NCBI GenBank assembly: GCA_016935525.1
Contig: JAFGQU010000021.1
Coordinates: forward strand, 15,028-79,027
DNA from: Candidatus Omnitrophota bacterium
Lineage (GTDB): Bacteria > Omnitrophota > Gorgyraeia > Duberdicusellales > 4484-171
Direction: 5' to 3'
Length of the DNA stretch: 64,000 nucleotides
The translations under genes and the position numbers were made by a program. Positions 3,215-61,400 of the stretch are shown piece after piece. The notes under the pieces are model-generated. The model ran no database searches, was not told where the DNA came from, and worked only from the letters and a program-made list of their open reading frames with translations. How positions within the stretch are numbered: position 1 is the first letter of the stretch; each line of letters opens with the position of its first letter.

Positions 3215-3691
3215 TTATTCCCTGTCTTTACACTGTTCGCATAGCCCGTAAAACTGTAAGATATGTTTCATGATTTTAAAATTATATTTCTTCGCAAGAC
3301 CTTTTTCCGTTCTCTTTAACAACTCCACTTCATCGTCGATAAAATCGGTATAATTAATGACCCTCTGGCAACGAAGGCATACCAGGTGATGGTGATGGTC
3401 TTCTTTATCCTCTTTACTCCTTTGCAACTCATATCTGGCCCGTCCGTCGCCAAAATCAAACTTATGGACCATCTGCAACTGGACCAGCAGCTCTAAGGTA
3501 CGGTATACGGTAGACATCCCGCTGGAAGGATGGATTTTATGGACTCTATGGTATATCTCTTCGGCGCTTAAATGTTCCCCGGTCCTGCTTAACACCGCCA
3601 AAATAGCCTGGCGGGACAGGGTAAGCCGGTAACCATACCCTTTAAATCGGCCCTGACACCAGCCCGCTCTTTTTGTAAAGTTATCCGGCAT
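3215..3691 (-). CDS. Fur-family metalloregulator (Fur/Zur/PerR type)
   Basis: 158 aa with an HTH, an HHHH...CxxC metal site (EDHHHHLVCLRCQRV) and a C-terminal CEQC. Confidence 0.8.
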   Translation of the reverse strand: MPDNFTKRAGWCQGRFKGYGYRLTLSRQAILAVLSRTGEHLSAEEIYHRVHKIHPSSGMSTVYRTLELLVQLQMVHKFDFGDGRARYELQRSKEDKEDHHHHLVCLRCQRVINYTDFIDDEVELLKRTEKGLAKKYNFKIMKHILQFYGLCEQCKDRE

Positions 3692-3821: not shown

Positions 3822-3985
3822 TCTGTACAGTCTACAGTCCATGGACTATCGACCATCGACTATACTCTATCGACTAATCACGCATCCCGTTTTCTCTCTA
3901 ACCGCTATCCGCTAAACGCTATTCACTATTCAACGGGATAACGGGCAAACAGGTTCACCTGACTACTGACTATCGACCAGAGGCT
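3822..3985. repeat. Heptanucleotide-periodic tandem repeat array (GTCTACA/GACTATC/NNCGCTA units)
   Basis: Direct reading shows a 7-nt period: ctgtaca gtctaca gtccatg gactatc gaccatc gactata ..., then accgcta tccgcta aacgcta, then gactact gactatc. Confidence 0.8.
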
Positions 3986-4045: not shown

Positions 4046-4243
4046 TCAAGCAGCGATTTTCCGCACTTTCCCATCTTGCCAGACAGAAATCAATCGTCCG
4101 TTTTTTTTGTGCCGTTCAACAACTTTTTTCACTGCTTTTTTTAAAGCAACCTCTGCTTTATCATGAAGGCTCATACGTTTTTTCATATTTCCACTCCAGT
4201 CTTGTTTATTATTTTCTTCAACAAAGGCATATCTTTCTTGCAT
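4046..4243 (-). CDS. Small basic hypothetical protein, possible partner of the upstream P-loop kinase
   Basis: 65-aa ORF overlapping the 3' end of the zeta-like gene. A more likely start is an internal Met (MKKRMSLHDK...). Confidence 0.25.
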   Translation of the reverse strand: MQERYAFVEENNKQDWSGNMKKRMSLHDKAEVALKKAVKKVVERHKKNGRLISVWQDGKVRKIAA

Positions 4244-4809
4244 ATTTTGTTGTGTTCCATTTTTGCGATCACTTTTGGTTTAATCCCCGAATTATCAAAT
4301 AAGATCCAGGAATCTGACATTTTAATATACACGTGAAAAAAGTTATGGATACTTCTACCGAAACGTCTTTTTATATCGACAACAGGGACATCATGGCCGC
4401 CTTCCGCGACCCTATTTTTAATACGGGCCACAGCTAATTGGGGATCAGGGAGCCATAAAAAGAAAAGATGCAATTGATATCCTTCTTCTTTTAAATTCTG
4501 AAAATGCCTTAGGTAAGTTTTACCGGCAAGCGTCGTCTCAAAACCGAAATCGATCTTCCTCTTCACCATCTCTTTAATCTGGTCCAAAACAAGTTTCCCG
4601 GCTTTGATTGCTACTTGTTGGGGCGAAAATGGAGATAATCCTTGGGCAATAAGATCAGCATTCACAAAATGAGGGCAATGAGCATAATTTGGCAGAAATT
4701 CCTTAGCAAACGTCGTCTTCCCCGACCCGTTGGGGCCGGCTATTATGTACACATTATTTTCCCTTTTCACGGAAATATTATATCGTGTGAGAGGATATTG
4801 GCAAATCAA
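4183..4809 (-). CDS. Zeta-toxin/AAA_33-like P-loop kinase
   Basis: 208 aa with Walker A GPNGSGKTTF, of size and type seen in the zeta-toxin/UNAG-kinase family. Confidence 0.5.
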   Translation of the reverse strand: MICQYPLTRYNISVKRENNVYIIAGPNGSGKTTFAKEFLPNYAHCPHFVNADLIAQGLSPFSPQQVAIKAGKLVLDQIKEMVKRKIDFGFETTLAGKTYLRHFQNLKEEGYQLHLFFLWLPDPQLAVARIKNRVAEGGHDVPVVDIKRRFGRSIHNFFHVYIKMSDSWILFDNSGIKPKVIAKMEHNKICKKDMPLLKKIINKTGVEI

Positions 4810-4841
4810 ATGAACCAGATGACAACCTACGTATCCACCAT

Positions 4842-4949
4842 CTACAGTCTCTGGTCTACGGTCTATGGTCTACGGTCTACGGTCTATGGTCTACGGTCTA
4901 TGGTCTATTGACTACTGACTATCGACCATCAACTATCGACTATCGACGT
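4842..4949. repeat. Heptanucleotide tandem repeat array (YGGTCTA)n followed by (GACTATC)n
   Basis: Reads tctacag tctctgg tctacgg tctatgg tctacgg tctacgg tctatgg ... then gactact gactatc gaccatc aactatc gactatc. Confidence 0.85.
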
Positions 4950-4954
4950 ACCCA

Positions 4955-5923
4955 TCATATCGCTTCGATCGTTGACGGCGGTTTAGTGGCGATATTGTAC
5001 GTGACGCTCACTACCCCGGGAACAGCTTTCAGTATCCGTTGCGCCAATGTTTCCAGCGTCTCATACGGCAGACGGGTAGGGTGCGCCTGACGGGCATCGA
5101 CACTATCCCAACAGCGTATCTCTATCTGCAACCCAAAATCACGTTTATTATCACGCATACCTGTCACGCGGTCCTGATGCAAAATCGCCATATACTGAAA
5201 CGCGCCGCATCCGGCAAGTTCTTCTTCCACGATCACGGTTGCCGCGCGTACAGTAGCGATTCTCTCCCGCGTCGCTTCACCGATCACCCGGGCCGAAAGC
5301 GCCGGGCCGGGAAACGGCATCCGATGATATATCTCTTCCGGTAACCCTACCCCTTGCGCTACTTTTCTCACTCCATCTTTACGTAACTGGACCAGCGGTT
5401 CGATGATCTTGTACCCGAACGCGGCTTGAGGGTCGATCCCCAACTGTTCAAACACGTTATGTTGCCGTTTGATCCCGGCGATAGTTTCATCGATATCGGT
5501 AAGGATAGTCCCCTGCAAAAGATATTGTGCGCCGCTTGACTTTACCAGACGGCCGAATACTTTTTTATAAAAAGTCTGGGTGATCGCTTCTCTTTTTTCT
5601 TCCGGATCGGTGACTCCTTTTAACGCTGAAAAAAACTCATCCTGAGCGTCGATGATCTCTACATTCACCCCCATCTTTTTGAAAATCGCGACAATCCGTT
5701 CCGGTTCACCTTCCCGCATGATCCCGTTATCGATAAAATACGTGTGAAGCCTGTCGCCCAACGCCCGGTGCCCCAGCATCGTCACTGCCGAAGAATCTAC
5801 TCCTCCCGACAACGCGTTAATTGCCAGGCCGTCGCCTACGGTCCGGGAGATTTCCTTTACTTTTTCTTCTACGAACTGTACTACGTTCAGATCCTTTACG
5901 GTGATCTCTTTCGTCATGGTCAT
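4955..5923 (-). CDS. guaA: GMP synthase ATP-pyrophosphatase subunit (GuaA subunit-B-like; no glutamine amidotransferase domain)
   Basis: 322 aa with the PP-loop SGGVDSS. The C-terminal dimerisation region ends KPPSTIEAI, and the internal stretch LPEEIYHRMPFPGP is typical of GMP synthase. Confidence 0.8.
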   Translation of the reverse strand: MTMTKEITVKDLNVVQFVEEKVKEISRTVGDGLAINALSGGVDSSAVTMLGHRALGDRLHTYFIDNGIMREGEPERIVAIFKKMGVNVEIIDAQDEFFSALKGVTDPEEKREAITQTFYKKVFGRLVKSSGAQYLLQGTILTDIDETIAGIKRQHNVFEQLGIDPQAAFGYKIIEPLVQLRKDGVRKVAQGVGLPEEIYHRMPFPGPALSARVIGEATRERIATVRAATVIVEEELAGCGAFQYMAILHQDRVTGMRDNKRDFGLQIEIRCWDSVDARQAHPTRLPYETLETLAQRILKAVPGVVSVTYNIATKPPSTIEAI

Positions 5924-9304: not shown

Positions 9305-9334
9305 CATAAAAAAAAGCAACCTGTATCAGGTTGC
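9305..9334 (-). terminator. Putative intrinsic terminator (minus strand) between the MATE gene and carB
   Basis: Hairpin gcaacc-tgtatca-ggttgc next to an A8 run on the plus strand, which is a U-run on the minus strand. Confidence 0.45.
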
Positions 9335-9486
9335 TGCGTGCGTTCTGGTTGAAACGGATTGGGTCATGAATGAATACCTTAGGATTATGGACGTATTATT
9401 GAATTGTAGTATCTGTAAGGAAACCCGTCAAGGGAAAAGTAAACCGGCCATAGCCGGGGCGACCGGCCACAGCGGCACCCGCGTTT

Positions 9487-9637
9487 AGTCTACAGTCTCT
9501 GGTCTATGGTCTCTGGTCTCTGGTCTCTGGTCTACGGTCTCTGGTCTATGGTCTACGGTCTATGGTCTCTTGACTACTGACTATCGACTATCGACTATGG
9601 ACTATCGACTATGGACTATCAACCATCGACTATTTAA
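9487..9637. repeat. Heptanucleotide tandem repeat array (TGGTCTM)n then (GACTATS)n; the longest copy in the window
   Basis: About 12 units gtctacag/tctctgg/tctatgg... followed by about 9 units gactact/gactatc/gactatg/gactatc.... Confidence 0.9.
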
Positions 9638-11093: not shown

Positions 11094-11200
11094 TTACAGT
11101 CTCTCTCTGGTCTCTGGTCTCTGGTCCCTTGACTATGGACTATGGACTACTGACCACCGACCATCGACTACTGACCATCGTCTATTGACTATCAACTAAC
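11094..11200. repeat. Heptanucleotide tandem repeat array
   Basis: Reads ctctctggtctctggtctctggtcccttgactatggactatggactactgaccaccgaccatcgactactgaccatcg. Confidence 0.85.
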
Positions 11201-11745
11201 GCTTTATATCGTTCCGGAAACCAGACTTTATATAATTCAAACATTTCTTCTCCTAAATGTTTTTTTAAAATCTCGATTTTACTCTGGCCACTGCCATCAT
11301 CATAATCACCTTCCTGAAGGGCGATGTTTTCAAAGATCACACCTACCCCTTTCTTGGCATCACTGAAAACTTCGTCACCGCGGATGCTGTTATAAAGCAC
11401 CCCGTTTATTCCGTTCACATAAAAACCGGACGGGTAGTTTATCGTCACGCCGCCTTTTTCTTTAGACATTTTTTTAAGTTGATCGATCATAAGAACTTTC
11501 TGTTCGTGGCTCATCAGAATCCACACGATAACCGAATTCCCTTTCTCGATCTGCTCATGGAGATAAACTTCATCCGTCTCTTTAGGAATAACGTTATACA
11601 TAACGGCATGTTCTTTCAACTCTTCACTGGTAATAAGCGACTGATCTTCTATGATCGGCAGCGCCTCGTCAATCACCGCATAACTATTCGCCGTCGCAAC
11701 AACTACCCACCCTATAATCAATAATATGTTTTTCAGTTTATTCAT
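11182..11745 (-). CDS. Secreted hypothetical protein (signal peptide)
   Basis: 187 aa with a hydrophobic N-terminal leader MNKLKNILLIIGWVVVATANSYA. Confidence 0.4.
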   Translation of the reverse strand: MNKLKNILLIIGWVVVATANSYAVIDEALPIIEDQSLITSEELKEHAVMYNVIPKETDEVYLHEQIEKGNSVIVWILMSHEQKVLMIDQLKKMSKEKGGVTINYPSGFYVNGINGVLYNSIRGDEVFSDAKKGVGVIFENIALQEGDYDDGSGQSKIEILKKHLGEEMFELYKVWFPERYKALVDSQ

Positions 11746-12262: not shown

Positions 12263-12275
12263 AAGATAATCGTTA

Positions 12276-12325
12276 GTATATAGTCCATAGACCAGAGACT
12301 GTAGACCATGGACTATTCACCATAT
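12276..12325. repeat. Short heptamer repeat block (mixed orientation: TAGTCCA/TAGACCA/TGGACTA)
   Basis: Reads atagtccatagaccagagactgtagaccatggactat, with 8-bp inverted ends. Confidence 0.7.
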
Positions 12326-12726
12326 ATCGCCGCGATGATCATCCCTTCCAGAGGAGTCTGTATCAACCCCATGATCGTCCAGTACAGAACAACTGTAGGA
12401 GCGACCGTCATAAACGAGTACGTAGCGAACATTCCCGGCAGGATCCCGACCGCCCATACGCATAATCCAAACACGAACCCTTTGGTCAGTTTATTTTTCC
12501 CGGGTAGTCCTTTACGGATCAACGCGTACACCAAAGCTAATATAATACTTATTACCAGACTGCCGATAAAGAACCCGGCGCCCGGCGCGGAATCCATCGG
12601 TTTCCACACATTAGTCGGTTCGAGTTTATAGACCCAGTTAAAAATCCCGGCACAGGTCACCATCCCTGCTATCGCATTAAAAATAGTTACCGCTACGCCA
12701 GCCAAAAGCAGTTTTCCTATCTTCAT
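12313..12726 (-). CDS. Small integral membrane protein (hypothetical)
   Basis: 137 aa with 4 predicted TM segments. Confidence 0.4.
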   Translation of the reverse strand: MKIGKLLLAGVAVTIFNAIAGMVTCAGIFNWVYKLEPTNVWKPMDSAPGAGFFIGSLVISIILALVYALIRKGLPGKNKLTKGFVFGLCVWAVGILPGMFATYSFMTVAPTVVLYWTIMGLIQTPLEGMIIAAIYGE

Positions 12727-12842: not shown

Positions 12843-12990
12843 TATAAATAAATCCTAAGACCGAAGCACTAAATTCTAAACAAGCTCTAAGCTCTAATTT
12901 CAAAACAGATAAATATTTTTTCATTAGAATTTGGAATTTAGGATTTGTTTTGGATTTAGAATTTAGGGCTTAGAATTTTTAGACTGGTGA
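12843..12990. repeat. Composite inverted repeat built from about 11-nt direct repeats (CTAAATTCTAA / TTAGAATTTAG)
   Basis: Left arm aaatcctaaga...ctaaattctaaacaagctctaagctctaattt. Right arm ttagaatttggaatttaggattt...ggatttagaatttagggcttagaattt. Centre near 12925. Confidence 0.6.
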
Positions 12991-13038
12991 TCTCCCCCCG
13001 CCACCCTGCACCCGGCACCCGAAACTGCTAAGGAACGG

Positions 13039-13440: not shown

Positions 13441-13503
13441 GTCTCTTATTGTATCACGGCCGGTTTTTACCGAAAAGTTCGAATATGAAGACTGGCGAAA
13501 AAG

Positions 13504-13536
13504 TCGCTGGTCGATGGTCTATGGTCGTTAGTCAAA
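13504..13536. repeat. Short heptamer repeat remnant (TGGTCGA TGGTCTA TGGTCGT)
   Basis: Reads gctggtcgatggtctatggtcgttagtc at the left edge of the AT-rich island. Confidence 0.5.
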
Positions 13537-13680: not shown

Positions 13681-14193
13681 CTATTCGAATTTCCATTTCT
13701 CTTGCCTAAAAAAATCAAACCGATTAAAATACCGGATCTTATAAAAACTGCAGATATTAGGGATTCGATAGGTATTCGTTTTAAAACTCTCATCTGTAAC
13801 CACAGCACAAGAAAACTTTGATTTTCCATTAGTATACTCTCTATTCTCTCTAATCGCCAAAGCAATAACCCAAGGGTCCGCATAAGGAGGTTCTTTATCA
13901 GGGCTAGCAAAGCCAGGATGATCTTTCAAAATATCTATCATAATATCTTGTTGGATGTCGTCTACATCAATAAACATATGTTTATTATCCTTAACCCAAT
14001 CAACCAAACCATCTTCATATCTAACTAATTCATCATGTACTTCTAGTGGAGATATTAGCCGTTCCTCTTGGATCAATTTCTCAATGTTAGGCCAAATTTT
14101 AGGATAAATGTCGGCGGGATGTTGTCGATAAATATTAATCAACGCACTGCTATCAATACAATATTTAATTTTTTCTTCCTCATTGCTACTCAT
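13681..14193 (-). CDS. DUF4411-family (PIN-like) protein
   Basis: 170 aa with an N-terminal YCIDSSALIN and the conserved acidic residues typical of the PIN-like DUF4411 fold. Its start overlaps the stop of the upstream ImmA/IrrE gene by 4 nt. Confidence 0.6.
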   Translation of the reverse strand: MSSNEEEKIKYCIDSSALINIYRQHPADIYPKIWPNIEKLIQEERLISPLEVHDELVRYEDGLVDWVKDNKHMFIDVDDIQQDIMIDILKDHPGFASPDKEPPYADPWVIALAIRENREYTNGKSKFSCAVVTDESFKTNTYRIPNICSFYKIRYFNRFDFFRQEKWKFE

Positions 14194-15320
14194 ACCATCG
14201 CCAACATTCCTACATCATGAAAATATTTAGTTTTTATTCCTAAATAATTAGACATATCAGCAGCAGTAATGAACCCTTTATTACCGGCCTCAAATACCAT
14301 AGAAACATAACGCTTGCCTTTCTCCGAAACACAGCGACCTGCGACAGTACTTCGTCCAAACGCTTTATATGGTTTTTCTTGTCTTTTCATCTCTTCGTAT
14401 AATTGCTGATACTTTCTGAAAGAAATATAATTCAATACTTGGAGACGTCTTAAGAAAACATATTTGCTAACTTTAAATTTTCTGGCAATAGATTTTATAG
14501 TTGGGATATCAAATATTTCATTCTTAAAACTGATCACATTTGTTTTTGGTACTAAAAATGCACCGGAAAAATGATTACTGAAAATTTCTCCGCTCTCTGA
14601 GTGTTGGTCTTCTTTATATTCTGGCAAACACATACCTTCTCTACCAATAAGTATGTGTGCATATTCATGAAATAATGTAAATATTTTTGCATTAATAGCA
14701 TCTTTGGAATTTATGACTATTGCTGGCAACCCTTTCCCATAAAAAGTAAATCCTCGAATTTCATTAACTGGTAAACTAAGTTGAAAAACTAATATATTCT
14801 GACTTTCTACCCATTTTCGCCAAATTTGAAAGGCTTCAAATGAATCACGCCAGTTAAATTGTTCTTCAATCTTTATTCCACAAGTCTGCCTAATCTGCTC
14901 AGCCACTATTTCAGGATTTTCAGAAAGCGAATGCGCTTTAAAATCCGGCCCTTTTACATTCAATTCCATAGCTAATTCTGAAGCCCTAGACTGATACTGT
15001 CGAGCCCTACGTATTAATATTAAGCTTTTGGAAGATATTGGCAGACGTACTTCATTAGGCAAGGTACGAAAATCTTTTAGCAAGACTTTTGTCTTAGGTG
15101 GTTTTGGCAAGAAAAAAGCTGTTAAAGGACGTTTGTAATATGTCGAGAGTTTTCTTAGTTTTGCAATAGTTATATCTACATCTCCCGATTCCCAAGTTTC
15201 GAGCAACTCAGGTTTTACTTTCAATTTTCCAGATATTTCCTCGACACTAAAACCTGCTGTATCGCGAGCCCATTTTAAAGTTGCCGGAGTAATTTTTGCT
15301 ATAATACTCTTATGTCTCAT
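14190..15320 (-). CDS. XRE-type HTH fused to an ImmA/IrrE-family (COG2856) zinc metallopeptidase
   Basis: 376 aa with an N-terminal HTH (TLKWARDTAGFSVEEISGKL...) and the metallopeptidase motif HEYAHILIG. Confidence 0.7.
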   Translation of the reverse strand: MRHKSIIAKITPATLKWARDTAGFSVEEISGKLKVKPELLETWESGDVDITIAKLRKLSTYYKRPLTAFFLPKPPKTKVLLKDFRTLPNEVRLPISSKSLILIRRARQYQSRASELAMELNVKGPDFKAHSLSENPEIVAEQIRQTCGIKIEEQFNWRDSFEAFQIWRKWVESQNILVFQLSLPVNEIRGFTFYGKGLPAIVINSKDAINAKIFTLFHEYAHILIGREGMCLPEYKEDQHSESGEIFSNHFSGAFLVPKTNVISFKNEIFDIPTIKSIARKFKVSKYVFLRRLQVLNYISFRKYQQLYEEMKRQEKPYKAFGRSTVAGRCVSEKGKRYVSMVFEAGNKGFITAADMSNYLGIKTKYFHDVGMLAMV

Positions 15321-15325
15321 ATTTT

Positions 15326-16435
15326 CTAACTAAAGAATTCCCCCTGAAACGCCTCCTGCATTAAAGAATTAAAAAGATTATTTAATTCTTTTTCTGACTC
15401 TTTTTGTTTTTGCTTCAAACTTTCAACTTTTTGAACAAGAGTGGCGAATTTCTTCTGTTGGGGCAAGGGGGGAAGAATTACCTTCAACTTTTCTAATGGT
15501 TTTTGTGTTATTTTTGGCTGCCCAGAAATATCTGCATATCGGTTTAATTGATGGAACCACAATAAATAAAACAAAAATTGTAAGTCAATGTCTTTCTTGA
15601 ACTGCTTTATGTAAATAGCATTATCCGAAACCCAACATTTACCTCTTGTGAGATGAACACAACCACAATAGACACCCACTCGTCCAATAACAATCGTCGG
15701 GAATTCGACTAAATAATCATTAAAATAACCCATAATCCCATTGCCCCCATATGAAGGGTATGGGTATGAATTATCGAGATTTTTCGAAGGGTTAAATTTC
15801 CCACTAGATAAAATAAATAAGTCCTTTCCAAAGGCTATGCCCCACCCTTTTGTATTCTTCACCGGATCGCCGAACATTTCCAAAAATGCTGATTTCAAAA
15901 ATTCATCAGTCAATTTGTTTATGTGGGCTCTCTTTTCAATTGTAGATTCAGCCTTAGCAAGAATTGCCGATGTCTTTATTTTTATCGGCTCCGAAACACT
16001 TGGCACTTTAATTTCTTCAATATCTGACAATCGTATAGATGGGTACGCTTTATCCCGTATAAGCTGACTTGGGCGGAATCGCCTGAACCAATATTTTAGA
16101 AACTCGCTATCAATTTCTTTTTTAGGTATTATTGTCGCAAGGTGGCTGACTACATAACAAGAATTTTGCAATACATAAACTCTGTCTTTTGTCGCTGACA
16201 TGCCACTTTTAGCAAATAAAATTGTTCCTTCAGGAAAAAGTCTTAATTGAAATTTTTTTGCTACATCATCATTAATCTTTTCAAGCGAATTTTCGTCTCC
16301 GCCAGACAATAAAAATTCTAAACTTCCTGCCCTAACAAAAGGGTGTCCTACCTTGCCAAAATACTGCTGACCTTGAGGAGCACCTTGCCCAGCTGAGACT
16401 TCAGCAATAGTTTTTAAATATGTTGTTTGCTTCAT
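15326..16435 (-). CDS. hsdS: Type I restriction-modification specificity subunit
   Basis: 369 aa with the HsdS-typical TRD plus conserved-helix architecture. It overlaps hsdM by 4 nt. Confidence 0.75.
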   Translation of the reverse strand: MKQTTYLKTIAEVSAGQGAPQGQQYFGKVGHPFVRAGSLEFLLSGGDENSLEKINDDVAKKFQLRLFPEGTILFAKSGMSATKDRVYVLQNSCYVVSHLATIIPKKEIDSEFLKYWFRRFRPSQLIRDKAYPSIRLSDIEEIKVPSVSEPIKIKTSAILAKAESTIEKRAHINKLTDEFLKSAFLEMFGDPVKNTKGWGIAFGKDLFILSSGKFNPSKNLDNSYPYPSYGGNGIMGYFNDYLVEFPTIVIGRVGVYCGCVHLTRGKCWVSDNAIYIKQFKKDIDLQFLFYLLWFHQLNRYADISGQPKITQKPLEKLKVILPPLPQQKKFATLVQKVESLKQKQKESEKELNNLFNSLMQEAFQGEFFS

Positions 16436-17943
16436 AGCTCTTTATCGATTTCCATAACTAGGATATCAATTTCTTTCTCTAAATAATGAATTTTCTGAAT
16501 TATGGTTTTTGGATCCTCGTATTCTATTTCTTCGTATTCAATCGGTTTATATCTCGAAATTGAGAGATCATAATCATTTTGTTTTATTTCTTCAAGACCA
16601 ACCCATAGCCATTTATCGCCTTTTTCTGGTTGTCTATTTTTATCACGGACTTTCCATTGTTGAACAATATCCGGGATATCATTCTCTTCAATTTTATTGC
16701 GCTTATCATCAAGGGAATACCCATCTGCCTGCATATCGTAAAACCAAACTTTATCGGTTTTATCGCCTTTAGTAAATACAAGAACTGCCGTTGAAACTCC
16801 AGCGTAAGGCTTGAATACTCCGGCAGGCATAGAAATAACTCCTTCAAGCGCACATTTTTCTAGAATCATTTTCCGAATATCTTTATGAGCATTACTTGAC
16901 CCAAAAAGTACACCGTCAGGCACAATTACACCACACCGACCGCCTGTAGTTAGCATATTTGTAAAAAGATTGATAAATAATAGTTCGGTTTTTGGACGTT
17001 TGCTCTTTCCTGCAATCGTCAAATCTTCACTTATATCGCTACGATCGACACTTCCCTTAAATGGTGGATTAGCAAGGATCACATCATAACAATTTCTTTC
17101 ACTGAAATTTTTTGATAATGTATCTGCATAGCAAATATTTGGGTTGGCGATTCCATGAAGCACCATATTCATTAGCCCTATTCGTACCATCGTAGTATCA
17201 AAATCATAGCCATGAAATGCTTTTTCCCATAGAAAGTTCCACTGTTTCTTATCTACAATTTTATCTCCCACCAAATTATGAGGCGCTCCATCTTCATCGT
17301 ACTCTATTTGGTCAGAGTCGGTATGCATTTTAAGAATATGATTAAAACTGGCAATCAAAAATCCTGCAGTTCCGCAAGCAGGATCACATATTCTTTCACC
17401 TAACCGAGGATCTAACAACTCAACAATCATCCTGATAATGTGCCTAGGAGTTCGAAACTGACCATTTTTACCTGATTGAGATATCTCACTTAAAAGATAC
17501 TCGTAAATATCTCCTTGGATATCTATTCCCTGAGCTGAAATATTGAGTTCATCTATAATTTTAACAGCTTCTTGTAAAAGAGATGCCTTAGGTATTAGAA
17601 ACACCGCGTCTTTCATAGATTCAGCATAAAAATTACCATCTCCACCTAATTGTTTAATGAATTGAAAAACAATATCTCGCACATGTTTAAGCATCCCTTC
17701 TGCATCAAAATACATCCAGTGCGACCATCGGCAATTCTCTTTTTTCGCAAAAATTGACTTATATTCAATATTGCGCCTTTTAGCGGCATTCTTCTGCATA
17801 TTGTCCATATCTTCAAGACGTCTCATAAAAATGAGATAGGAAATTTGCTCTACCGCGACTAATGGATTTGACAATCCTCCAGAATAGAACATGTCCCATA
17901 ATTTGTCGATTTTACTCTTAATTTGTGGATTCGAACTTAACAT
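16432..17943 (-). CDS. hsdM: Type I R-M DNA methyltransferase subunit (N6-adenine)
   Basis: 503 aa with the NPPF catalytic motif (ILANPPFKGS) and a SAM-binding motif. Confidence 0.9.
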   Translation of the reverse strand: MLSSNPQIKSKIDKLWDMFYSGGLSNPLVAVEQISYLIFMRRLEDMDNMQKNAAKRRNIEYKSIFAKKENCRWSHWMYFDAEGMLKHVRDIVFQFIKQLGGDGNFYAESMKDAVFLIPKASLLQEAVKIIDELNISAQGIDIQGDIYEYLLSEISQSGKNGQFRTPRHIIRMIVELLDPRLGERICDPACGTAGFLIASFNHILKMHTDSDQIEYDEDGAPHNLVGDKIVDKKQWNFLWEKAFHGYDFDTTMVRIGLMNMVLHGIANPNICYADTLSKNFSERNCYDVILANPPFKGSVDRSDISEDLTIAGKSKRPKTELLFINLFTNMLTTGGRCGVIVPDGVLFGSSNAHKDIRKMILEKCALEGVISMPAGVFKPYAGVSTAVLVFTKGDKTDKVWFYDMQADGYSLDDKRNKIEENDIPDIVQQWKVRDKNRQPEKGDKWLWVGLEEIKQNDYDLSISRYKPIEYEEIEYEDPKTIIQKIHYLEKEIDILVMEIDKEL

Positions 17944-17957
17944 TTCATCTCCTGTTA

Positions 17958-18073
17958 AATAGGGTAATATTAATTTTATTTTACCCTATTTATATAACAT
18001 ATTACCCTATTTCTGTCAATAGGGTAATTATTGTCAAATATTACCCTATTTATTCATATCATTACCCCATTTT
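17958..18073. promoter_or_regulatory. Array of six copies of the decamer TTACCCTATT (4 direct, 2 inverted) upstream of hsdM
   Basis: The copies are aaatagggtaat, ttaccctattta, attaccctatttc, aatagggtaatta, attaccctattta and attaccccatttt, all in the AT-rich fic-hsdM spacer. Confidence 0.6.
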
Positions 18074-18114
18074 GGTAAGTTCAAAAATTGAATTTACTCA
18101 AATCGTCGTAAATA

Positions 18115-19155
18115 TTACACTTTTTTCCACTTGGCATTACGCCCAATTCCTGTAGATTTTATCTTTCCAGCATCTCTTAAATCTCTCAATACTTTCCTTA
18201 TCATATCGCGGGTCACATTCGGACAAGCCTTTTCTAGTTCTGAAATCGAAAATGGCTTAATAAATCTATTGATTTGGGCGATTATCTGACCTGTCTTAGA
18301 CCTCGTACGCTTAAAAACTCCAACTCTCCCTTCAAATTCTTTATATGCAGCAAGTAACATAGCATGAAAATAATCAAGCCAGGGGAATATATTGTGCTCA
18401 CCTTGATGCCAACCGTTTGAAGAAGCAATAAGAGAATCATAATAACTATCTTTCGACTCTTCAATGATTCGTTCCAAACTTATGTATTTTCCTACACGAT
18501 AACCACATTTGTATAACAATAAAAGGGTTAACAACCGCGCGATCCTCCCGTTCCCATCTTTGAATGGATGAATGCATAGAAAATCAAATATAAACAATGG
18601 GACTAGAATAAGGTGATCATGAATTTCGTCCTCAATATATTTGTTATAAAGCGTGATGGTTTTTTTCATATAATTGGACGTATCTTTTGCGGGTACCGTC
18701 TGGAAACGAATGGTTGTGCTCCCATCAGGATTCTTATCTACAATAGCGTTATCCACTTTTTTCCAAAATCCGGACTTAATAGTTGTATATCGATATAACA
18801 TTGAATGGAATTGCAATATGACATTTTCATCGAGAGGAATATTTTGGTGTGATTGATGGATAAGGTTCAATACATCTTTGTAACCAGCAATTTCTTGTTC
18901 AGGACGGTTACGGGGTTTAGTTTTTTCTTTTACAATATTCTCAATCCTTTTATGCGGTGCCGTTACACCTTCTATCCTATTGGATGCTTCTGTACTTTCT
19001 ACAATCGCACTCTCCAGTAACTTTTCTAATACATCAGGTGACTGTCGAGTATAGAGCTCTTCTTTTCCTTTATATTCTCCTAGTACATGGATTGTCTTTA
19101 ACATTTTTGAATCAAATTTCAATTTTTTTAGATATTTTGACTCTAGCGATTCCAT
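18115..19155 (-). CDS. Fic-family protein (class II, N-terminal inhibitory helix) with C-terminal winged-helix domain
   Basis: 346 aa with the Fic motif HPFKDGNGRIARLL and an upstream [ST]xxxE[GN] inhibitory motif (SNRIEG). The C-terminus is basic and DNA-binding-like. Confidence 0.85.
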   Translation of the reverse strand: MESLESKYLKKLKFDSKMLKTIHVLGEYKGKEELYTRQSPDVLEKLLESAIVESTEASNRIEGVTAPHKRIENIVKEKTKPRNRPEQEIAGYKDVLNLIHQSHQNIPLDENVILQFHSMLYRYTTIKSGFWKKVDNAIVDKNPDGSTTIRFQTVPAKDTSNYMKKTITLYNKYIEDEIHDHLILVPLFIFDFLCIHPFKDGNGRIARLLTLLLLYKCGYRVGKYISLERIIEESKDSYYDSLIASSNGWHQGEHNIFPWLDYFHAMLLAAYKEFEGRVGVFKRTRSKTGQIIAQINRFIKPFSISELEKACPNVTRDMIRKVLRDLRDAGKIKSTGIGRNAKWKKV

Positions 19156-19165
19156 TTCGATCTCC

Positions 19166-21955
19166 TTATACTTTTATACTATTAAAAACTCCTATTATCT
19201 CCTGCAGTTCTTCTTCGGAAAATAACCTTGTAGCTGCATCTATCCCAAACTGGGTAAATGGAGGCTCAAAAAGATCGTCGTATTCAATATGTTTCTTCTT
19301 AGCAAAAACATTCTTTATTGTGCGTAAAAAGCGTATTTGCTCAGCCGTAAGCGCGTAGTGGTTGTTTCTTTCAATAACATAGGTATTAAAGGATTCATTA
19401 ATTATTTCTTCTGGTTCAGGGAATTTATATAAGCCAAGGATGCTCTTTATAAATTGTAAAAAACTACCATAGGGGCAAGCATACGTCTTTCTTAAATTAT
19501 CTTCATTTATATAGAGTTCGGGACTATTTAAGGTATCTTCTAAATCTACCAGGTCTTTGTCGGAAATTGGCTTATTCTGTTTTATTTTGACAAGAGCGGG
19601 ATGCGACTCTGCTAATTCTATGACTCTCTTTTCCACATTCTTTCGATAGCTATACACATAGTCGCCCTCTCCTTCGGGTCCAAATTCTATCCATTTCCTC
19701 TCAATCACTTCATCATCAAGGTCAAGTTTCACAATAGATGGTGGTTCTATCCTTTTATATTTCATTATTTCTGTAAGATTAGTCTTTATGTATTCAATCT
19801 TTTCATAATCAAGTTTATGCCAAAAATCAGAAGATAAAACTTTTATAATATGGCTTTCCTGTTCTTTTACTGCCTTTAGATTGCGCGGCAGACATTTAAT
19901 GTCATTTGTGATGGAAGTTCTGTACTTCTCTAAATCTTCTTTTTTATGGGTGATACAGGCTAAACCAAGATTTTCTACTTTAAGTAAGAATTGGTATTGA
20001 TAAATATTTATATCACTACAACAACGTAACAATGGTGCAATTTCTTGATCGAGAAATTGAATCGATTTAGTATCAACATCATCCCACACCTCTTTAGATA
20101 ATGCCTTATGGATATTACGTAGATTCTCACGAACAGTAATAGAGGGTTCGGGTAAAGATTGAATGTCATTTATGATTTCCTCTTTGACCTTATCAAAATA
20201 AGCTTGGTTAGACTGTCTAAATAGATTGAGCTTCTTTAATCGCACCCTAAATACTTTCACTGGCAAAGCTTCTTGTTGCGCTGGAACTTCGCCTTCTGGT
20301 TTTTCACCAAAATACTGGAAGTTGTTCCAGTGATCTATTATCAAAAATCGATCTTTTTCAATACACCATGATTTCCTTTTTAGCAAATCATCCTCTAATG
20401 TTCGAGTTCCTCGCCCAATCATCTGCCAAAACTTTATTTTGCTAAATACTGGTTTAGCAAACACAAGATTTACAACTTCTCGTATATCAACGCCAGTATC
20501 AAGCATATCTACTGAGATAGCAACACGTGGATAGTTCTCATTTTTGAATTTATCAAGCAGCTTCAGCGGTCTTTCCATCTTCGAATCTATAATATCGACC
20601 AGTTTACCCTGGTACTCTGGATACAATTCATTAAATACCATCCACAATCTTTTTGCATGTTCATGCGAAAGTGCAAATATAATGGATTTACCCGGTACTA
20701 CACCAGAATCATCTTTAAGACATACATCCATAAACTCACGTACTAATGACTCATTTGTACCTAGATTTGTAACCTTTTTTTCCAAATCAGTACCTTCAAA
20801 ATCGATCTCCTCAAGGGTTAACCCTTCTTCAACTAGTTTCTTTTGTATACTTAGCGGCAATTCGTTACCTTTAATTCCTGTAATCTGAAAGTTTGTCTTT
20901 GCAGCATATGGTGGTCGAAAATCAACAAGATACTTATCTTCAATAGCTTGATTGTATGCATAATTAAAAGTGGGGTGCCCATTTTCACAACTAAAAAATT
21001 TAAAAGTATCTCTATCAAGAAAATCGCTGGGAGTCGCAGTTAAACCAATTTGGATGGCATGAAAATAGCTTAGAACATCTTTCCATTTATTATAAATTGA
21101 TCTGTGACACTCATCTGAGATAACTACATCAAAAAATCCTGGAGATACAGAGGAAAAACACCCCATCATTGTCTGAATTGTCGCAACATTCAATCGCTTC
21201 GACTCCTGTAAATCGCCATAGCGTATCCAATGACGAGATTCATTAGGAAGATGCTCTTTAAAATTATCATAAGCCTGTTGCGCTAACGCTTCTCTATCGA
21301 CAAGGAAAAGCACTCTTTGTGCCCATCCTGCTCGGATTAAAACATCTATCAATGCCATAGCTGTTCGTGTTTTCCCTGTGCCAGTTGCCATAACAAGTAG
21401 AAATTTGCGTCTGCTCTTTTGTAAGCCATTAAAAATTCGCTTCAACCCTTCTATCTGGTAATCTCTATTGATAATTTCTGGTTTTATAGGTATTGAATGT
21501 AAATCTTTGCTATGCTCATTCTGATACAGGGTGCGTTCCAAATCTTCACGACTGAAAAATCCATGCACCATAGATGGCGCGTAACGCTGTCTATTCCAAT
21601 ACCATATTTCGTATCCATTCGTTAAAAAGATAAGCGGTTCCCTTCCATATTGTCTTTGTATACCGTCAGCATAGTCCTCGGCCTGCTGTTTTCCTACAAT
21701 TGGATCACGTGAAGTACGCTTTGCTTCTACAATAGCTAAAGGGTCACCAGCACGGTCTAAAAGAAGATAATCAGAAAAACCTGCTGTTTCATATTCCGCT
21801 TCACCATCGGAAATAGGTCGTCGAGTTCCTGCTCCTGCAATTTCAAATTCTGTTAACACGTGAGAATGGTCGTTTATCTGCCAACCAACTTTTTCCAAGC
21901 TTGAGTTTATTATTTTCTTTCTCGTCTGCATTTCTGTAGGATCAATATGATACAT
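19166..21955 (-). CDS. hsdR: Type I restriction enzyme R subunit (helicase/endonuclease)
   Basis: 929 aa with Walker A MATGTGKT and the DEAH box VISDECHRS (SF2 helicase). Confidence 0.9.
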   Translation of the reverse strand: MYHIDPTEMQTRKKIINSSLEKVGWQINDHSHVLTEFEIAGAGTRRPISDGEAEYETAGFSDYLLLDRAGDPLAIVEAKRTSRDPIVGKQQAEDYADGIQRQYGREPLIFLTNGYEIWYWNRQRYAPSMVHGFFSREDLERTLYQNEHSKDLHSIPIKPEIINRDYQIEGLKRIFNGLQKSRRKFLLVMATGTGKTRTAMALIDVLIRAGWAQRVLFLVDREALAQQAYDNFKEHLPNESRHWIRYGDLQESKRLNVATIQTMMGCFSSVSPGFFDVVISDECHRSIYNKWKDVLSYFHAIQIGLTATPSDFLDRDTFKFFSCENGHPTFNYAYNQAIEDKYLVDFRPPYAAKTNFQITGIKGNELPLSIQKKLVEEGLTLEEIDFEGTDLEKKVTNLGTNESLVREFMDVCLKDDSGVVPGKSIIFALSHEHAKRLWMVFNELYPEYQGKLVDIIDSKMERPLKLLDKFKNENYPRVAISVDMLDTGVDIREVVNLVFAKPVFSKIKFWQMIGRGTRTLEDDLLKRKSWCIEKDRFLIIDHWNNFQYFGEKPEGEVPAQQEALPVKVFRVRLKKLNLFRQSNQAYFDKVKEEIINDIQSLPEPSITVRENLRNIHKALSKEVWDDVDTKSIQFLDQEIAPLLRCCSDINIYQYQFLLKVENLGLACITHKKEDLEKYRTSITNDIKCLPRNLKAVKEQESHIIKVLSSDFWHKLDYEKIEYIKTNLTEIMKYKRIEPPSIVKLDLDDEVIERKWIEFGPEGEGDYVYSYRKNVEKRVIELAESHPALVKIKQNKPISDKDLVDLEDTLNSPELYINEDNLRKTYACPYGSFLQFIKSILGLYKFPEPEEIINESFNTYVIERNNHYALTAEQIRFLRTIKNVFAKKKHIEYDDLFEPPFTQFGIDAATRLFSEEELQEIIGVFNSIKV

Positions 21956-21980
21956 AAAAAATAAGCCTCCAATAATATTT

Positions 21981-22758: not shown

Positions 22759-22797
22759 ACTGTCTCCTCTCCACAACCATCACTCCCCTACCCCTTC

Positions 22798-22816
22798 GGC
22801 AACACCGGATGTTGCC
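22798..22816. repeat. REP-like hairpin GGCAACACC-GG-ATGTTGCC
   Basis: Imperfect palindrome with one mismatch. Confidence 0.6.
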
Positions 22817-22862
22817 AGATGGTCATCTCAAATATCCCTTATTCCACTGTGCTCTTTCTTAA

Positions 22863-22899
22863 GTACCCTTTGGCAACACCGGGTGTTGCCAAAGGGTAC
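22863..22899. repeat. REP-like perfect 18-bp palindrome GTACCCTTTGGCAACACC/GGTGTTGCCAAAGGGTAC
   Basis: Perfect inverted repeat with a 1-nt loop, immediately after the RAYT stop codon. Confidence 0.8.
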
Positions 22900-23593: not shown

Positions 23594-23622
23594 CCTTTGG
23601 CAACCTACGAGGTTGCCAAAGG
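23594..23622. repeat. REP-like hairpin CCTTTGGCAACC-tacga-GGTTGCCAAAGG
   Basis: Perfect 12-bp stem just upstream of the RAYT start. Confidence 0.8.
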
Positions 23623-23755
23623 GTTAAAAAAGAAAGACCTTCGCCCATCACCTGAGCAAAGGTCTCTATTAATTCTTTATACTCCTATAGCTATTATTGT
23701 CAATCCCTATCAGTGATCATCTGGTGTTTTTCAAATCTGCGATCATCTGTGTATA

Positions 23756-23801: not shown

Positions 23802-23873
23802 GTCACAGAGACACACGTCACACGTCACACGTGGAAGAACGGAACGCGGGATCCGGAACGCGATACGCGTAAT
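23802..23873. repeat. Heptamer-periodic repeats (GTCACAC x3, then AACGCGN units)
   Basis: Reads gtcacagagacacacgtcacacgtcacacgtg then gaacggaacgcgggatccggaacgcgatacgcgt. Confidence 0.6.
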
Positions 23874-30305: not shown

Positions 30306-30406
30306 AATGTTATTCGTTATTTTCTAAAAGAAAACCTTCTGCCCTCTCTTATATCACAGAGATCTAAAGAGTGCAACTTCGGGGGTAGAACACGGAAAAG
30401 CTATTC

Positions 30407-33097: not shown

Positions 33098-33160
33098 AAA
33101 TAGTCGATAGTCAATAGTCCATGATCCGTAGACCATAGACCGGAAACTAGAGACTGTATC
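33098..33160. repeat. Heptanucleotide tandem repeat array, reverse orientation ((GATAGTC)n then (TAGACCR)n)
   Basis: Reads aaatagtcgatagtcaatagtccatgatccgtagaccatagaccggaaactagagactgtatcc. Confidence 0.8.
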
Positions 33161-58630: not shown

Positions 58631-58902
58631 TCGTCGCGCGTATTGCGTACTGCGTATCGCGATTTACATGAAATATGTCCGCCTCCGGCAGACGAAATAT
58701 ACTCGCTCGCGCTCGTGGAATATGCTTACGCGAAATGAAATCCCGAAGGGATATCTAGTATTTCCTTGATTCATTTCTCGAGCCGTAAGGCGAAGAGAAA
58801 TACAATTGTATTTCCATCGCATTTGGACTGTATTTCAATAAAACCATTCCGCGCTTCAAATGTATCCCGGACGCGTTACGCGTGTCGCGTTACGCATTAC
58901 GA
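58631..58902. repeat. Convergent-gene spacer bounded by heptamer blocks (GCGTAYY)n / (CGCGTTA)n, with an internal 18-nt palindrome GAAATACAATTGTATTTC
   Basis: Left block tcgtcgcgcgtattgcgtactgcgtatcgcga (58631..58662), right block acgcgttacgcgtgtcgcgttacgcattacga (58871..58902), and the palindrome at 58797..58814. Confidence 0.6.
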
Positions 58903-59512: not shown

Positions 59513-59607
59513 GGTCACAAAGTCACACGTTTCAAATATTTTTTTTAAATGAGTTATTAATAGCTCTTTCTTTACGTGTGACCTTGTGACGTGTGTCGTG
59601 TGACGTG
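59513..59607. repeat. Inverted GTCACAC-type heptamer blocks flanking an AT-rich core between dnaX and recR
   Basis: Left block ggtcacaaagtcacacgt, right block acgtgtgaccttgtgacgtgtgtcgtgtgacgtg. Confidence 0.6.
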
Positions 59608-61290
59608 TTATACATCAAACGTCCCTTCAAACGTATCGAGGAGGTCATTTACCAGACCTTCCTCACCGGGGAAACCGTATTCTTTGCTCTGCATAGTATC
59701 GGGATTCCCTTTATCGGAAGCCTCTTCTTTCAAGAGAACAAATTTAATCCCGATTGCGGCGTTAAATTTCTTTTTCAGGCATTCTTCCAGATAAGAAGTA
59801 TTTTTAGCCTTCTCGACGATCTCTTTATGAAAAGAATATTGCCGGGAAAACCCTAATGTAAGTCTCTGCTTCTCATAGGAGATCAATGTCGATTCCGCAA
59901 GATACGAAGCAAGTGACATCCGTTCTTTCTTTATCTCAGAAAGGAATTCTTTCCAGCTTTGACGGATATATTCTAACGTCACGGTATCTACGACCTGTTC
60001 GGCCTGCGGCGGATCATCCTGAGAAAGTACCGTGTGAGGACCGTGCCGGGAAGGATTTTCTCCGATACCTTTAGGTGTAAGGATATCTTGTGCCGGCGCA
60101 AAATCGATATTTTTTTCTTTTTGCGGAGTAATTTCCGGTTGAGGTATTACCGGTTTTTGCGCAGACTGCTTTTGTTGAGGCCCGGGATGTTGAGGGTTAT
60201 CCTCAACCTGACAATATTTTATGAAGACTATTTCCAGGGGGATCCGTAACGAATCGAGTTTACGTCCCCAATCTTTTGCATCAAGCAGTAATTCGATCAA
60301 TTTCAGGATATCGGATATCCGGGTTTTTCGAGAAAGCTCTTTCAATATGTCTTTCGTCTGGGGCGACACATAGACCAGATCTTTAAGTACCTGCGGACTC
60401 AATTTCACTAAAGCGATATTACGCAGATGTTCGATGAAATACAGGAGAAAGGCGCCGAGGTCTTTCCCTTCTTCTACCAGGGTATTAAGGAAAGTCAGAG
60501 CATTCACGACATCTTTATTGATGATATAGCGAGTGACGGTATTTAATGTCTCTTCATCGATTATCCCCAGGAAAGAGGTGACTTCACCGGGATCTTTTTT
60601 GTCCAGAAGGATCGGGACAAACTGGTCAAGTAACGATTCGGCGTCACGGATGCTCCCGCCCGATACCCGGGCGATCGGATAAAACAATTTTTTATCCAGG
60701 GAGATATTTTCTTTCTCAGCGATATATTGGAGTTTTTCGACGATCTGTTCTGCCGGTAAAAGGTGAAATTGGAATTTCTGGCAACGGGAAAGGATCGTAG
60801 GCAATATCTTCTGAGGATGAGTCGTCGCAAAGATGAACTTTACATGGTGTGGCGGTTCTTCTAATGTCTTAAGTAACGCGTTGAACCCGTCCGTCGTGAT
60901 CTGATGGACTTCATCGATAATATATATCTTATAACGGGAATAGGTCGGCGAAAGCTTAACGTTTTCGCGTAATGTACGGATATCATCGATCCCGCGGTTA
61001 GAAGCGCCGTCGATCTCGATCACATCCAGAGATACTCCCCGGTCGATTTCGGTACAACTGGTACATTTCCCGCAAGGGGTAAGGGTAGGGCCTTCGAAAC
61101 AATTAAGCGACCTGGCGAGGATCCTCGCCAGACTTGTTTTACCTACCCCCCGGGGACCGCTGAAAAGGTAGGCATGATGGACCCGGTCACTGACAATCGC
61201 TTTTTTAAGTGCCGATACCACATGCGCCTGGCCGACGACTTCCTGGAAATTACGGGGACGATACTTTAGAGCAAATGCTTGATAATCCAT
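59608..61290 (-). CDS. dnaX: DNA polymerase III subunit gamma/tau
   Basis: 560 aa with the AAA+ Walker A GPRGVGKTS, the zinc module CGKCTSC and domain III. Confidence 0.9.
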   Translation of the reverse strand: MDYQAFALKYRPRNFQEVVGQAHVVSALKKAIVSDRVHHAYLFSGPRGVGKTSLARILARSLNCFEGPTLTPCGKCTSCTEIDRGVSLDVIEIDGASNRGIDDIRTLRENVKLSPTYSRYKIYIIDEVHQITTDGFNALLKTLEEPPHHVKFIFATTHPQKILPTILSRCQKFQFHLLPAEQIVEKLQYIAEKENISLDKKLFYPIARVSGGSIRDAESLLDQFVPILLDKKDPGEVTSFLGIIDEETLNTVTRYIINKDVVNALTFLNTLVEEGKDLGAFLLYFIEHLRNIALVKLSPQVLKDLVYVSPQTKDILKELSRKTRISDILKLIELLLDAKDWGRKLDSLRIPLEIVFIKYCQVEDNPQHPGPQQKQSAQKPVIPQPEITPQKEKNIDFAPAQDILTPKGIGENPSRHGPHTVLSQDDPPQAEQVVDTVTLEYIRQSWKEFLSEIKKERMSLASYLAESTLISYEKQRLTLGFSRQYSFHKEIVEKAKNTSYLEECLKKKFNAAIGIKFVLLKEEASDKGNPDTMQSKEYGFPGEEGLVNDLLDTFEGTFDV

Positions 61291-61323: not shown

Positions 61324-61400
61324 ATATAGTCGATAGTCGTTGGTCGACGGTCTTCAGTAATGAAACCAAAGACTCTAGACCATAGGCTAAAGACCGAAGG
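61324..61400. repeat. Heptanucleotide tandem repeat array (TAGTCGA/TGGTCGA/TAGACCA units)
   Basis: Reads atagtcgatagtcgttggtcgacggtcttcagtaatgaaaccaaagactctagaccataggctaaagaccgaagg. Confidence 0.75.

Follow-up and report, generated by a model that had tools for sequence, protein, structure and literature searches.

Tandem repeats with a unit of seven nucleotides are over-represented among the longer simple-sequence repeats of many bacteria, and neither a function nor a dispersal mechanism has been established for them (PMC4692102, PMC4679880); Mrazek 2007, as far as it is reported in these two papers, described heptanucleotides as dominating long simple-sequence repeats, perhaps through polymerase slippage. 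Here, repeats of this kind are analysed in a 64,000-nucleotide stretch of contig JAFGQU010000021.1 (assembly GCA_016935525.1) from a Candidatus Omnitrophota bacterium, called the window below, in which they form arrays in the spacers between genes, including the array at 9487..9637 beside a gene for a MATE efflux transporter. These arrays belong to the known class of heptanucleotide simple-sequence repeats; most likely they are driven by slippage, spread by the copying of entire arrays and persist because spacers in 3' untranslated positions tolerate them. The host phylum and the GGTCT/GACTA unit family are new, whereas the repeat class has already been described.

The heptamer arrays of Xanthomonas and Nostoc are heterogeneous, comprise 2-26 units and occupy hundreds of dispersed loci, the Nostoc unit being GGGGAYT (PMC4692102). 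In two Xanthomonas genomes Rehm et al. (2015) counted 186 and 183 arrays of GGGAATC, 89-93% of them intergenic and near a neighbouring open reading frame (ORF), with 70-75 pairs in 'convergent orientation' that constitute inverted repeats and with an under-represented 7-8% between divergent ORFs; no strand preference was seen, at conserved sites the two species differ in array length and sequence, most of the repeats lie in transcribed sequence, the genes nearby are a random functional assortment and the study found no function (PMC4692102). The window arrays display the features of this class, namely tandem 7-nt units, an excess of period 7, a bias towards spacers, dispersed loci and convergent inverted pairs, and as intergenic 7-nt arrays with such pairs they resemble the Xanthomonas and Nostoc heptamers more closely than the short tandemly repeated repetitive (STRR) elements of cyanobacteria. 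They differ from the former in their units, GGTCTAY and GACTAYS, and in their host. Heptamer arrays of the G-quadruplex type, with at least four units each carrying a run of at least three G, are impossible here because the window units carry GG at most.

STRR sequences are 7-bp repeats that can form hairpins between cistrons, as between hupS and hupL; their function is not established, and transcript stability or translational coupling has been proposed (PMC2670836). A first reading of the window made from the letters alone, here the sequence-only reading, had likened the arrays to STRR outside the cyanobacteria, and the likeness holds for 7-bp tandem spacer repeats with hairpin potential in an Omnitrophota host. 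The arrays are not STRR in the strict sense, as the host is an Omnitrophota bacterium and the units differ from the published STRR units, which are CCCCAGT-, TTGGTCA- and CAACAGT-like; TTGGTCA is near the TTGGTCT and TGACCA units of the window and its relatives.

Heptamers of the TAACTGA type are scattered patchily over Beggiatoaceae, cyanobacteria and Bacteroidetes, with no mechanism of transfer in evidence; strains differ by 7-nt indels, Bacteroidetes and Microcystis contain mixed assemblages of several heptamers, and the BOGUAY repeats are located just upstream of start codons in the forward orientation, with one indirect repeat noted (MacGregor 2015, PMC4679880). The window arrays share with them the intergenic heptamer direct repeats and the patchy spread across phyla, and differ in unit, in abutting stop codons and in having two arms. 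Geobacter metallireducens contains multicopy elements of four or five tandem heptanucleotides (GGACCGG; MTYCTGA) that have been proposed to be regulatory, with no function tested (PMC2700814); these are likewise dispersed multicopy heptamer arrays, but with a fixed 4-5 copies, other units and a frequent location inside genes. A full-text literature search for the unit sequences of the window returned no relevant paper, and one for the STRR units brought up noise alone.

Eight loci of the window belong to one family with the layout TACAGTCTCT-(GGTCTMY)n-TTGACTACTGACTATC-(GACTAYS)m, in which TACAGTCTCT is a terminal element and TTGACTACTGACTATC the junction between the GGTCTMY run (A) and the GACTAYS run (B). 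Four arrays are long and four are short or decayed:

3822..3985, + strand: array 1, composite and decayed, with three short heptad blocks broken by non-repeat sequence; CTGTACAGT CTACAGT terminal heptads, B-type units at 3826-3863, CTAWNCG/CTATTCA heptads at 3898-3932 and the junction 18-mer TGACTACTGACTATCGAC at 3960-3977; a small ORF (4046-4243, - strand) on one side and fur (3215-3691, - strand) on the other.
4841..4949, + strand: array 2, CTACAGT CTCTGGT, about 8-9 GGTCTAY, TTGACTACTGACTATCGAC, and GACTAYC-type units (about 6 in total, about 4 of them after TTGACTACTGACTATCGAC).
9487..9637, + strand: array 3, the stretch reported here, about 11 GGTCTMY followed by about 8-9 GACTAYS, the whole predicted to fold as one end-to-end hairpin.
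11094..11200, + strand: array 4, TACAGTCTCTCT, about 3-4 GGTCTCT, then about 10 GACTAYS/GACCAYC units.
12274..12325, - strand: array 5, short, with 4-5 units in a compact hairpin: ATAGTCC ATAGACC AGAGACTGTAGACC ATGGACTAT.
13503..13536, + strand: array 6, a single arm of 3.6 units: GTCGCTG GTCGATG GTCTATG GTCGTTA GTC.
33098..33160, - strand: array 7, three to four ATAGTCN, then two RTAGACC and, further on, AGAGACTGTA; about 4 + 4 units.
61324..61400, - strand: array 8, degenerate, with 4 units and remnants: ATAGTCG ATAGTCG TTGGTCG ACGGTC, and further on CTAGACC ATAGGCT AAAGACC.

The 10-mer TACAGTCTCT occurs 5 times in the window, each time at the 5' edge of an array, against about 0.1 expected occurrences, and the 18-mer TGACTACTGACTATCGAC occurs 3 times, each time where two arms join; because of this common terminal 10-mer and junction 18-mer, the copies are homologous as whole arrays and are not independent microsatellites. 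Read in register, every unit is CTA-NNNN on one strand and hence NNNN-TAG on the other. With Tandem Repeats Finder (TRF) the heptamer blocks of the window have period 7, 3-11 copies per block and 80-100% matches; the two arms of array 2 match at 83% and 80%, and at 92% with a superperiod of 21 nt, and array 3 consists of about 11 GTCTCTG-type copies (85% matches) followed by GACTATC copies (83%). The second arm agrees with the first at 5/7 both as a direct and as an inverted repeat, which sets the window arrays apart from those of Xanthomonas and Nostoc, and the two fits are equal because GGTCT and GGACT differ by one central base and yet can pair through G-U. The dispersed heptanucleotide family that the sequence-only reading had recognised in the spacers, in both orientations and with unequal copy numbers, is thus confirmed, and its period of 7 is present at all eight loci; the period is not 'strict' as claimed, the units being 80-85% identical (TRF), the 'at least nine' spacers correspond to eight in that reading's own list, and the layout as two opposed arms forming an end-to-end hairpin had been missed.

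The host is a Candidatus Omnitrophota metagenome-assembled genome (MAG) and is non-cyanobacterial: the MATE protein encoded beside array 3 is 100% identical to the NCBI record 'MAG: MATE family efflux transporter [Candidatus Omnitrophica bacterium]', and the next-best match after this record is a protein of 67% identity. The possibility that the arrays are assembly artefacts made of collapsed reads, which the sequence-only reading had raised, is contradicted by two Logan contigs assembled independently from run SRR13394437, whose reads are possibly those behind the MAG itself; these carry arrays 1-5 at 100% identity, with array 1 identical in contig L180 and array 3 identical in contig L001. 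Similar arrays also lie in MAG contigs of GTDB that, from their names and sizes, are likely long-read assemblies (L032, a 3.2-Mb 'tig'; L006, 'polypolish'; and MFD contigs), and their occurrence in other lineages and phyla speaks against a confinement to this window, which had been the other reservation.

The GGTCT/GACTA family is the most conspicuous part of a general richness in heptamer arrays. The window contains 29 segments (918 nt) that are self-similar at lag 7, against about 6.2 in dinucleotide-type shuffles; lags 4, 5, 8, 10, 11 and 13 are at background level, lags 6, 9, 12 and 15 are raised, presumably through codon (triplet) periodicity, lag 14 being a multiple of 7; period 7 is the only non-codon period enriched. 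Among the stronger segments (score at least 9), 16 of 17 are located in spacers, which make up 13.5% of the window (binomial p<1e-12, own arithmetic), and 1.1 Mb of fetched DNA from carriers of such arrays contains 386 lag-7 segments against 5-70 at other lags. At least six further arrays, absent from the sequence-only reading, are built in the window from unrelated heptamers:

12924..13021: TTAGRAT-type units (12924-12978) and CCCGSCA-type units (12994-13021) in one spacer.
23812..23832: (CACACGT)x3 in the spacer upstream of a RAYT-like gene (described below); read on the opposite strand, these are the ACGTGTG units found at 59574.
58638..58656: GCGTATT GCGTACT GCGTA (GCGTAYT) in the spacer downstream of a DUF488 gene.
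58871..58901: ACGCGTT ACGCGTG TCGCGTT ACGCATT, abutting the recR stop codon (58903).
59574..59608: five ACGTGTG-type units in the gap that separates the stop of dnaX (59608) from the start of recR (59505).

A second family with an ACGYGT core (GCGTAYT, ACGCGTT, ACGTGTG) brackets recR at 58638-59608 and has its reverse complement, (CACACGT)3, at 23812. Since these arrays coexist with the GGTCT/GACTA family, the genome contains several independent heptamer families.

The two-arm design is not limited to Omnitrophota. A scan of GTDB, with one genome per species and a pattern of three GGTCT units followed by two GACTA units, which imposed both the partner arm (GACT) and the arm order, returned 51 loci in about 35 MAGs of Acidobacteriota, Bacteroidota, Gammaproteobacteria, Alphaproteobacteria, Firmicutes, Actinobacteriota, Omnitrophota, Planctomycetota and Deinococcota, so that the GGTCT/GAC design is present in at least 8 phyla by MAG assignment. 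Aligned and parsed, the loci read as (GGTCTTT)n(AAAGACT)m, (GGTCTAC)n(GGACTAC)m or (GGTCTAT)n(TGACTAT)m with drifting units, and some of them interleave both unit types or add a third block. Among other Omnitrophota, locus L014 consists of (TGGTCTA)4 and then GACTA units, and L053, itself enriched in period 7, has GTCTATG and ATTGACC arrays. All 51 matches derive from metagenome assemblies, almost every one with MAG in its title, and no cultured isolate is among them, which may reflect only the phyla involved. In a Paludibacter MAG (L007:3116-3240 and L033) the successive blocks are GTCTATG, GACTATT and AATCACY.

The arm order was also examined with an unbiased probe of four GGTCT units alone, (GGTCTNN)4, in a single metagenome scan that returned at least 120 loci; 13 of the 120 listed matches were set aside as eukaryote-type telomere repeats, 91 loci were usable, and the results for this A-run sample refer to the matches listed. 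At least three GAC units at 7-nt spacing were found downstream of the run in 15 loci and upstream in 1, control trinucleotides giving about 1; the partner arm is usually the perfect complement GACC and not GACT, and in 37 of 43 strand views it repeats the first arm as a true inverted copy. The order 'GTC arm first, GAC arm second' is identical when read from either strand. Over all inverted heptamer pairs in the fetched 1.1 Mb, 52 have the G-richer arm 5' and 10 the C-richer, and in families that had not been selected for, the counts are 16 and 4, with some redundancy; order controls on viral contigs gave 1, 0 and 3 matches for three patterns, too few to be used. One idea is that, whichever way it is transcribed, a palindrome with the C-rich arm first would present Rho with unstructured C-rich RNA, while one with the G-rich arm first never would. 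The set-aside telomere repeats carry GGTTTAG with GGTCTAG variants (L062, L067, L074, L101, L121, L139, L148 and others) and constitute a contaminant class for heptamer scans of metagenomes.

The turnover of the arrays can be followed in related genomes. Two related gammaproteobacterial MAGs have orthologous spacers (L005:1444-1697 and L039:1211-1492) whose flanks are 73% identical over 1.1 kb; the position of the array is kept, and unit number and decay differ, one copy having six intact TGGTCTT and about 10 right-arm units, the other decayed TGGTTTT (GGTCT to GGTTT) and two right-arm units. Array 2, L132, L158 and L114 show superperiods of 14 and 21 nt, which fit slippage of several units or unequal exchange, and within arrays the units drift block by block. 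Moreover, two loci of one Anaerovoracaceae MAG (L016:2148-2429 and L041:2679-2894) have about 108 nt in common, including the non-heptad loop TAAATCGRGCGCC, between flanks that are unlike; this element is a dispersed repeat and possibly mobile.

With regard to genes, array 3 abuts the MATE stop codon (9634-9636), and array 2 begins 5 nt past the stop of a guaA-like gene (4955-5923, - strand); a zeta-like gene has a promoter-like site (4804->4777), upstream of which array 2 is located. Array 4 lies 42 nt upstream of the MATE start, and ORF 11182-11745 (- strand) ends inside it, with its stop codon (11182-11184) and its six final codons; array 5 overlaps the stop codon of ORF 12313-12726 (- strand), while array 7 lies 57 nt upstream of the ATG at 33217 (+ strand) and array 8 lies 34 nt upstream of the dnaX start (61290, - strand). 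Beyond array 3, in the direction of transcription (- strand), come first a separate terminator-like hairpin (9473->9447), next a promoter-like site (9431->9403) and finally carB; the terminator-like and promoter-like sites are consensus matches only. Because the arrays follow stop codons, with separate terminator-like and promoter-like sites beyond them, they look more like 3' untranslated region (3'-UTR) or intercistronic sequence than like terminators or operators. None of the five divergent spacers of the window holds an array, and the 39 two-arm arrays of GTDB with scored neighbours lie in 25 co-directional, 12 convergent and 2 divergent spacers, by crude gene calls based on the longest ORF; an avoidance of divergent spacers, or a preference for 3' ends, is only modestly supported.

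The position inside or next to coding sequence has consequences for annotation. A change in unit number could alter the C-termini of ORFs 11182-11745 (- strand) and 12313-12726 (- strand), whose stops lie inside the arrays (11182-11200 and 12313-12325), and the GGTCTAY strand is free of stops in every frame, so that spurious ORFs run through the arrays, as at 4642-4911 (+ strand) and in seven cases among the GTDB loci. In the carB leader, about 140 nt upstream of the gene and downstream of a promoter-like site, a further, strong terminator-like hairpin with a T8 run (AGCAACCTGATACAGGTTGCT TTTTTTTA, 9315-9335) may be an attenuator.

These observations are best accommodated by a passive origin, which we hold to be the probable one. 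Arrays would lengthen and shrink through slipped-strand mispairing in steps of 7, 14 or 21 nt, and point-mutated units would be amplified again locally, giving blocks of related units. Many arrays would have gained a second, complementary arm, the resulting imperfect palindrome having the GTC arm first; where the unit is GGWCT, exchanging T and A once within its palindromic core GWC would suffice for this, because GGUCU pairs with GGACU. Whole arrays would have been copied to new spacers, as the homology of the window copies indicates, by some copying process, and would persist where they do little harm, mainly right after stop codons, where they are probably transcribed as part of 3'-UTR or intercistronic RNA. 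If they have an effect, it is probably a structural one, through a hairpin in RNA or single-stranded DNA that modestly influences where transcripts end or how stable they are. A role as terminator or cassette boundary is not supported, nor is one as operator for a specific protein.

Several points weigh against the passive origin. Slippage alone leaves without account the recurrence of the GGWCT core in at least 8 phyla, the fixed arm order and the arrival of whole arrays at new spacers. The only other assemblies of the window organism come from one sample and are identical, so that they display no copy-number variation, and the exact CarB sequence, sought for a comparison of copy number between strains, had no match on record. 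In addition, the A-run sample shows no depletion from divergent spacers, with 24 co-directional, 16 convergent and 14 divergent cases by the same gene calls.

[quoted passage not shown] The terminal and junction sequences common to the window copies would suit such an element, as would the predicted folds, which are mostly single end-to-end hairpins with the stem of array 7 lengthened by flanking GGGGA/TTCCC, and the 108 nt common to the two Anaerovoracaceae loci, whose flanks are not shared. REP, BIME and REPIN sequences are also dispersed imperfect palindromes of spacers near gene 3' ends in many copies, and the spacer placement of the arrays, with their avoidance of divergent promoter regions, is REP-like. 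The window even contains a gene at 22900-23580 (- strand) whose 226-aa product has an IS200-like Y1 (Y1/HUH) domain, the motifs HIH and RYVHLNP, and as best NCBIfam match 'REP-associated tyrosine transposase' (RAYT) with E 4e-15, below the curated cut-off.

The length of REPs, however, is fixed at about 20-40 nt, and they possess a conserved 5' tetranucleotide but no tandem units, whereas the arrays have no fixed length and their arms vary independently by whole heptads. Around the RAYT-like gene lie three copies of a palindrome of its own, CCTTTGGCAAC..GTTGCCAAAGG (22792-22823, 22860-22902 and 23594-23624), of which the window has no further copy; gene and palindromes together have the make-up of a classical RAYT-plus-REP unit. 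A mobilisation of the heptamer arrays by this RAYT is unsupported, the palindromes being a different family without heptads. In the A-run sample most runs lack a second arm. No target-site duplication was seen at the six well-defined window copies (arrays 1-5 and 7), whose borders were read directly; as to MITEs, the ends of these arrays pair only within the overall hairpin and no direct duplication is present at their borders. Finally, four copies in the Paludibacter MAG are alike in the heptads alone, with no common flanking or terminal sequence beyond them.

A smaller chance is given to the idea that GGWCT arrays are no passive products of slippage but traces of a dedicated machinery that the phyla have in common, either an enzyme that copies or synthesises heptads or a protein that reads a 7-nt register. 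Such a machinery would explain the recurrence of GGWCT in at least 8 phyla, the order of GTC before GAC, and the duplication of arrays without target-site duplications.

It is improbable that the arrays are transcription terminators, or stabilisers of mRNA 3' ends, selected for an RNA hairpin. This reading draws on their place directly after stop codons, on their predicted folds, on the enrichment of two-arm arrays in convergent spacers with depletion in divergent ones, and on the transcript stabilisation proposed for STRR hairpins (PMC2670836). The predicted folds of five window arrays, on the A->B strand and on its complement, are as follows:

Array 2: A->B strand z -2.2; complement z -1.4.
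Array 3: A->B strand -58.6 kcal/mol, z -6.0; complement -37.7 kcal/mol, z -4.4.
Array 4: A->B strand z -3.8; complement z -3.9.
Array 5: A->B strand z -3.2; complement z -1.4.
Array 7: A->B strand z -5.1; complement z -4.2.

By these predictions hairpin potential is real, but the strand on which it is greatest is in most cases not that of the mRNA: the weaker-folding strand is in the sense transcript for window arrays 1-4 and 7 and for 18 of the 25 co-directional GTDB cases, which argues against selection for an RNA hairpin, as do the single arms of most arrays in the A-run sample, in which no hairpin can form, and the weak correlation of arm lengths (rho 0.32, inflated by double counting). 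A termination role, which the sequence-only reading had proposed for testing, finds no place in the arrays either, since the consensus scan put terminator-like sites beside the arrays and none within them, no T-run follows any array, and a separate consensus terminator follows array 3. Rfam 15, searched over the whole window at the gathering score, matched only the tRNA at 30660-30733 and no array. The far better fold of the A->B strand than of its complement had suggested an RNA hairpin selected through G-U wobble; this was rejected, the partner arm being mostly the perfect complement GACC and the sense transcript usually the weaker strand.

More improbable still is a platform for a protein that reads the 7-nt register, coats the spacer and regulates the neighbouring genes. 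Two precedents would be the omega protein of plasmid pSM19035, a ribbon-helix-helix (RHH) protein that binds contiguous 7-bp units of heptad operators or centromeres with the consensus WATCACW, direct and inverted, in an orientation-dependent manner, and, on RNA, HutP, which reads UAG-N4 triplets. The register of exactly 7 with the conserved core CTA-NNNN / NNNN-TAG would suit such a reader; the fixed -> -> <- <- polarity recalls the orientation dependence of omega, a zeta-like gene adjoins arrays 1 and 2, and the AATCACY block of the Paludibacter arrays resembles the omega heptad, probably by coincidence. Omega sites, however, overlap the promoters of a few plasmid operons, whereas the arrays are chromosomal, numerous and variable in sequence and follow stop codons, with arrays 2 and 3 upstream of promoter-like sites and not over them. 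The units drift within and between arrays, several unrelated families occur in one genome, which would not be expected of one sequence-specific binder, and the genes next to arrays run to dozens across many phyla and are unrelated in function; a scan of 60 window proteins found no RHH/omega-like or HutP-like one. A connection with an omega/zeta system was likewise dropped, as no RHH gene was found and the zeta-like gene is only one of many neighbours. Ideas of primase sites or of a replication-strand preference were set aside, the CTA-bearing strand not being here the inferred lagging-strand template and the arrays studied by Rehm et al. showing no preference for a strand.

That the arrays are recombination or boundary sites delimiting mobile gene cassettes, as the sequence-only reading had proposed, is scarcely credible. 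In its favour, the zeta-like gene, the MATE gene and two small ORFs each have arrays on either side; against it, from 3.7 to 13.7 kb every spacer of at least 50 nt has a heptamer array, so that the bracketing is trivial, the flanked genes include housekeeping ones (fur, the guaA-like PP-loop enzyme, carB, the MATE pump, recR and dnaX), no integrase or recombinase was found with the arrays, their length and sequence vary, unlike attC or att sites, the orthologous gammaproteobacterial spacers retain both flanking genes, and the same kind of array separates unrelated genes in many phyla.

Two other features of the window may be mentioned. A low-GC (about 35%) island at 13681-22706 encodes a type I restriction-modification system (HsdS 15326-16435, HsdM 16432-17943, HsdR 19166-21955), together with a Fic protein (18115-19155), an M78/IrrE-like peptidase (14190-15320), DUF4411 (13681-14193) and RadC (21981-22706); it has almost no spacers and no heptamer arrays, and is probably a horizontally acquired defence island. 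At about 30000-31000, near the tRNA at 30660-30733, gene orientation switches from - to + and the GC skew changes sign, which could be a replication landmark or a rearrangement.

The picture of what heptamer repeats are stays unchanged by this case, and the special-looking idea of cassette boundaries is unsupported. The case adds the phylum Omnitrophota to the hosts of these repeats and shows one unit family (GGTCT/GAC) recurring from Acidobacteriota to Firmicutes. For annotation, the arrays create spurious stop-free ORFs on one strand and can supply or shift real stops on the other. A structural rule noted earlier for Xanthomonas only, that of the G-richer arm first, is now quantified, and for it a testable idea is offered, the avoidance of exposed C-rich RNA.

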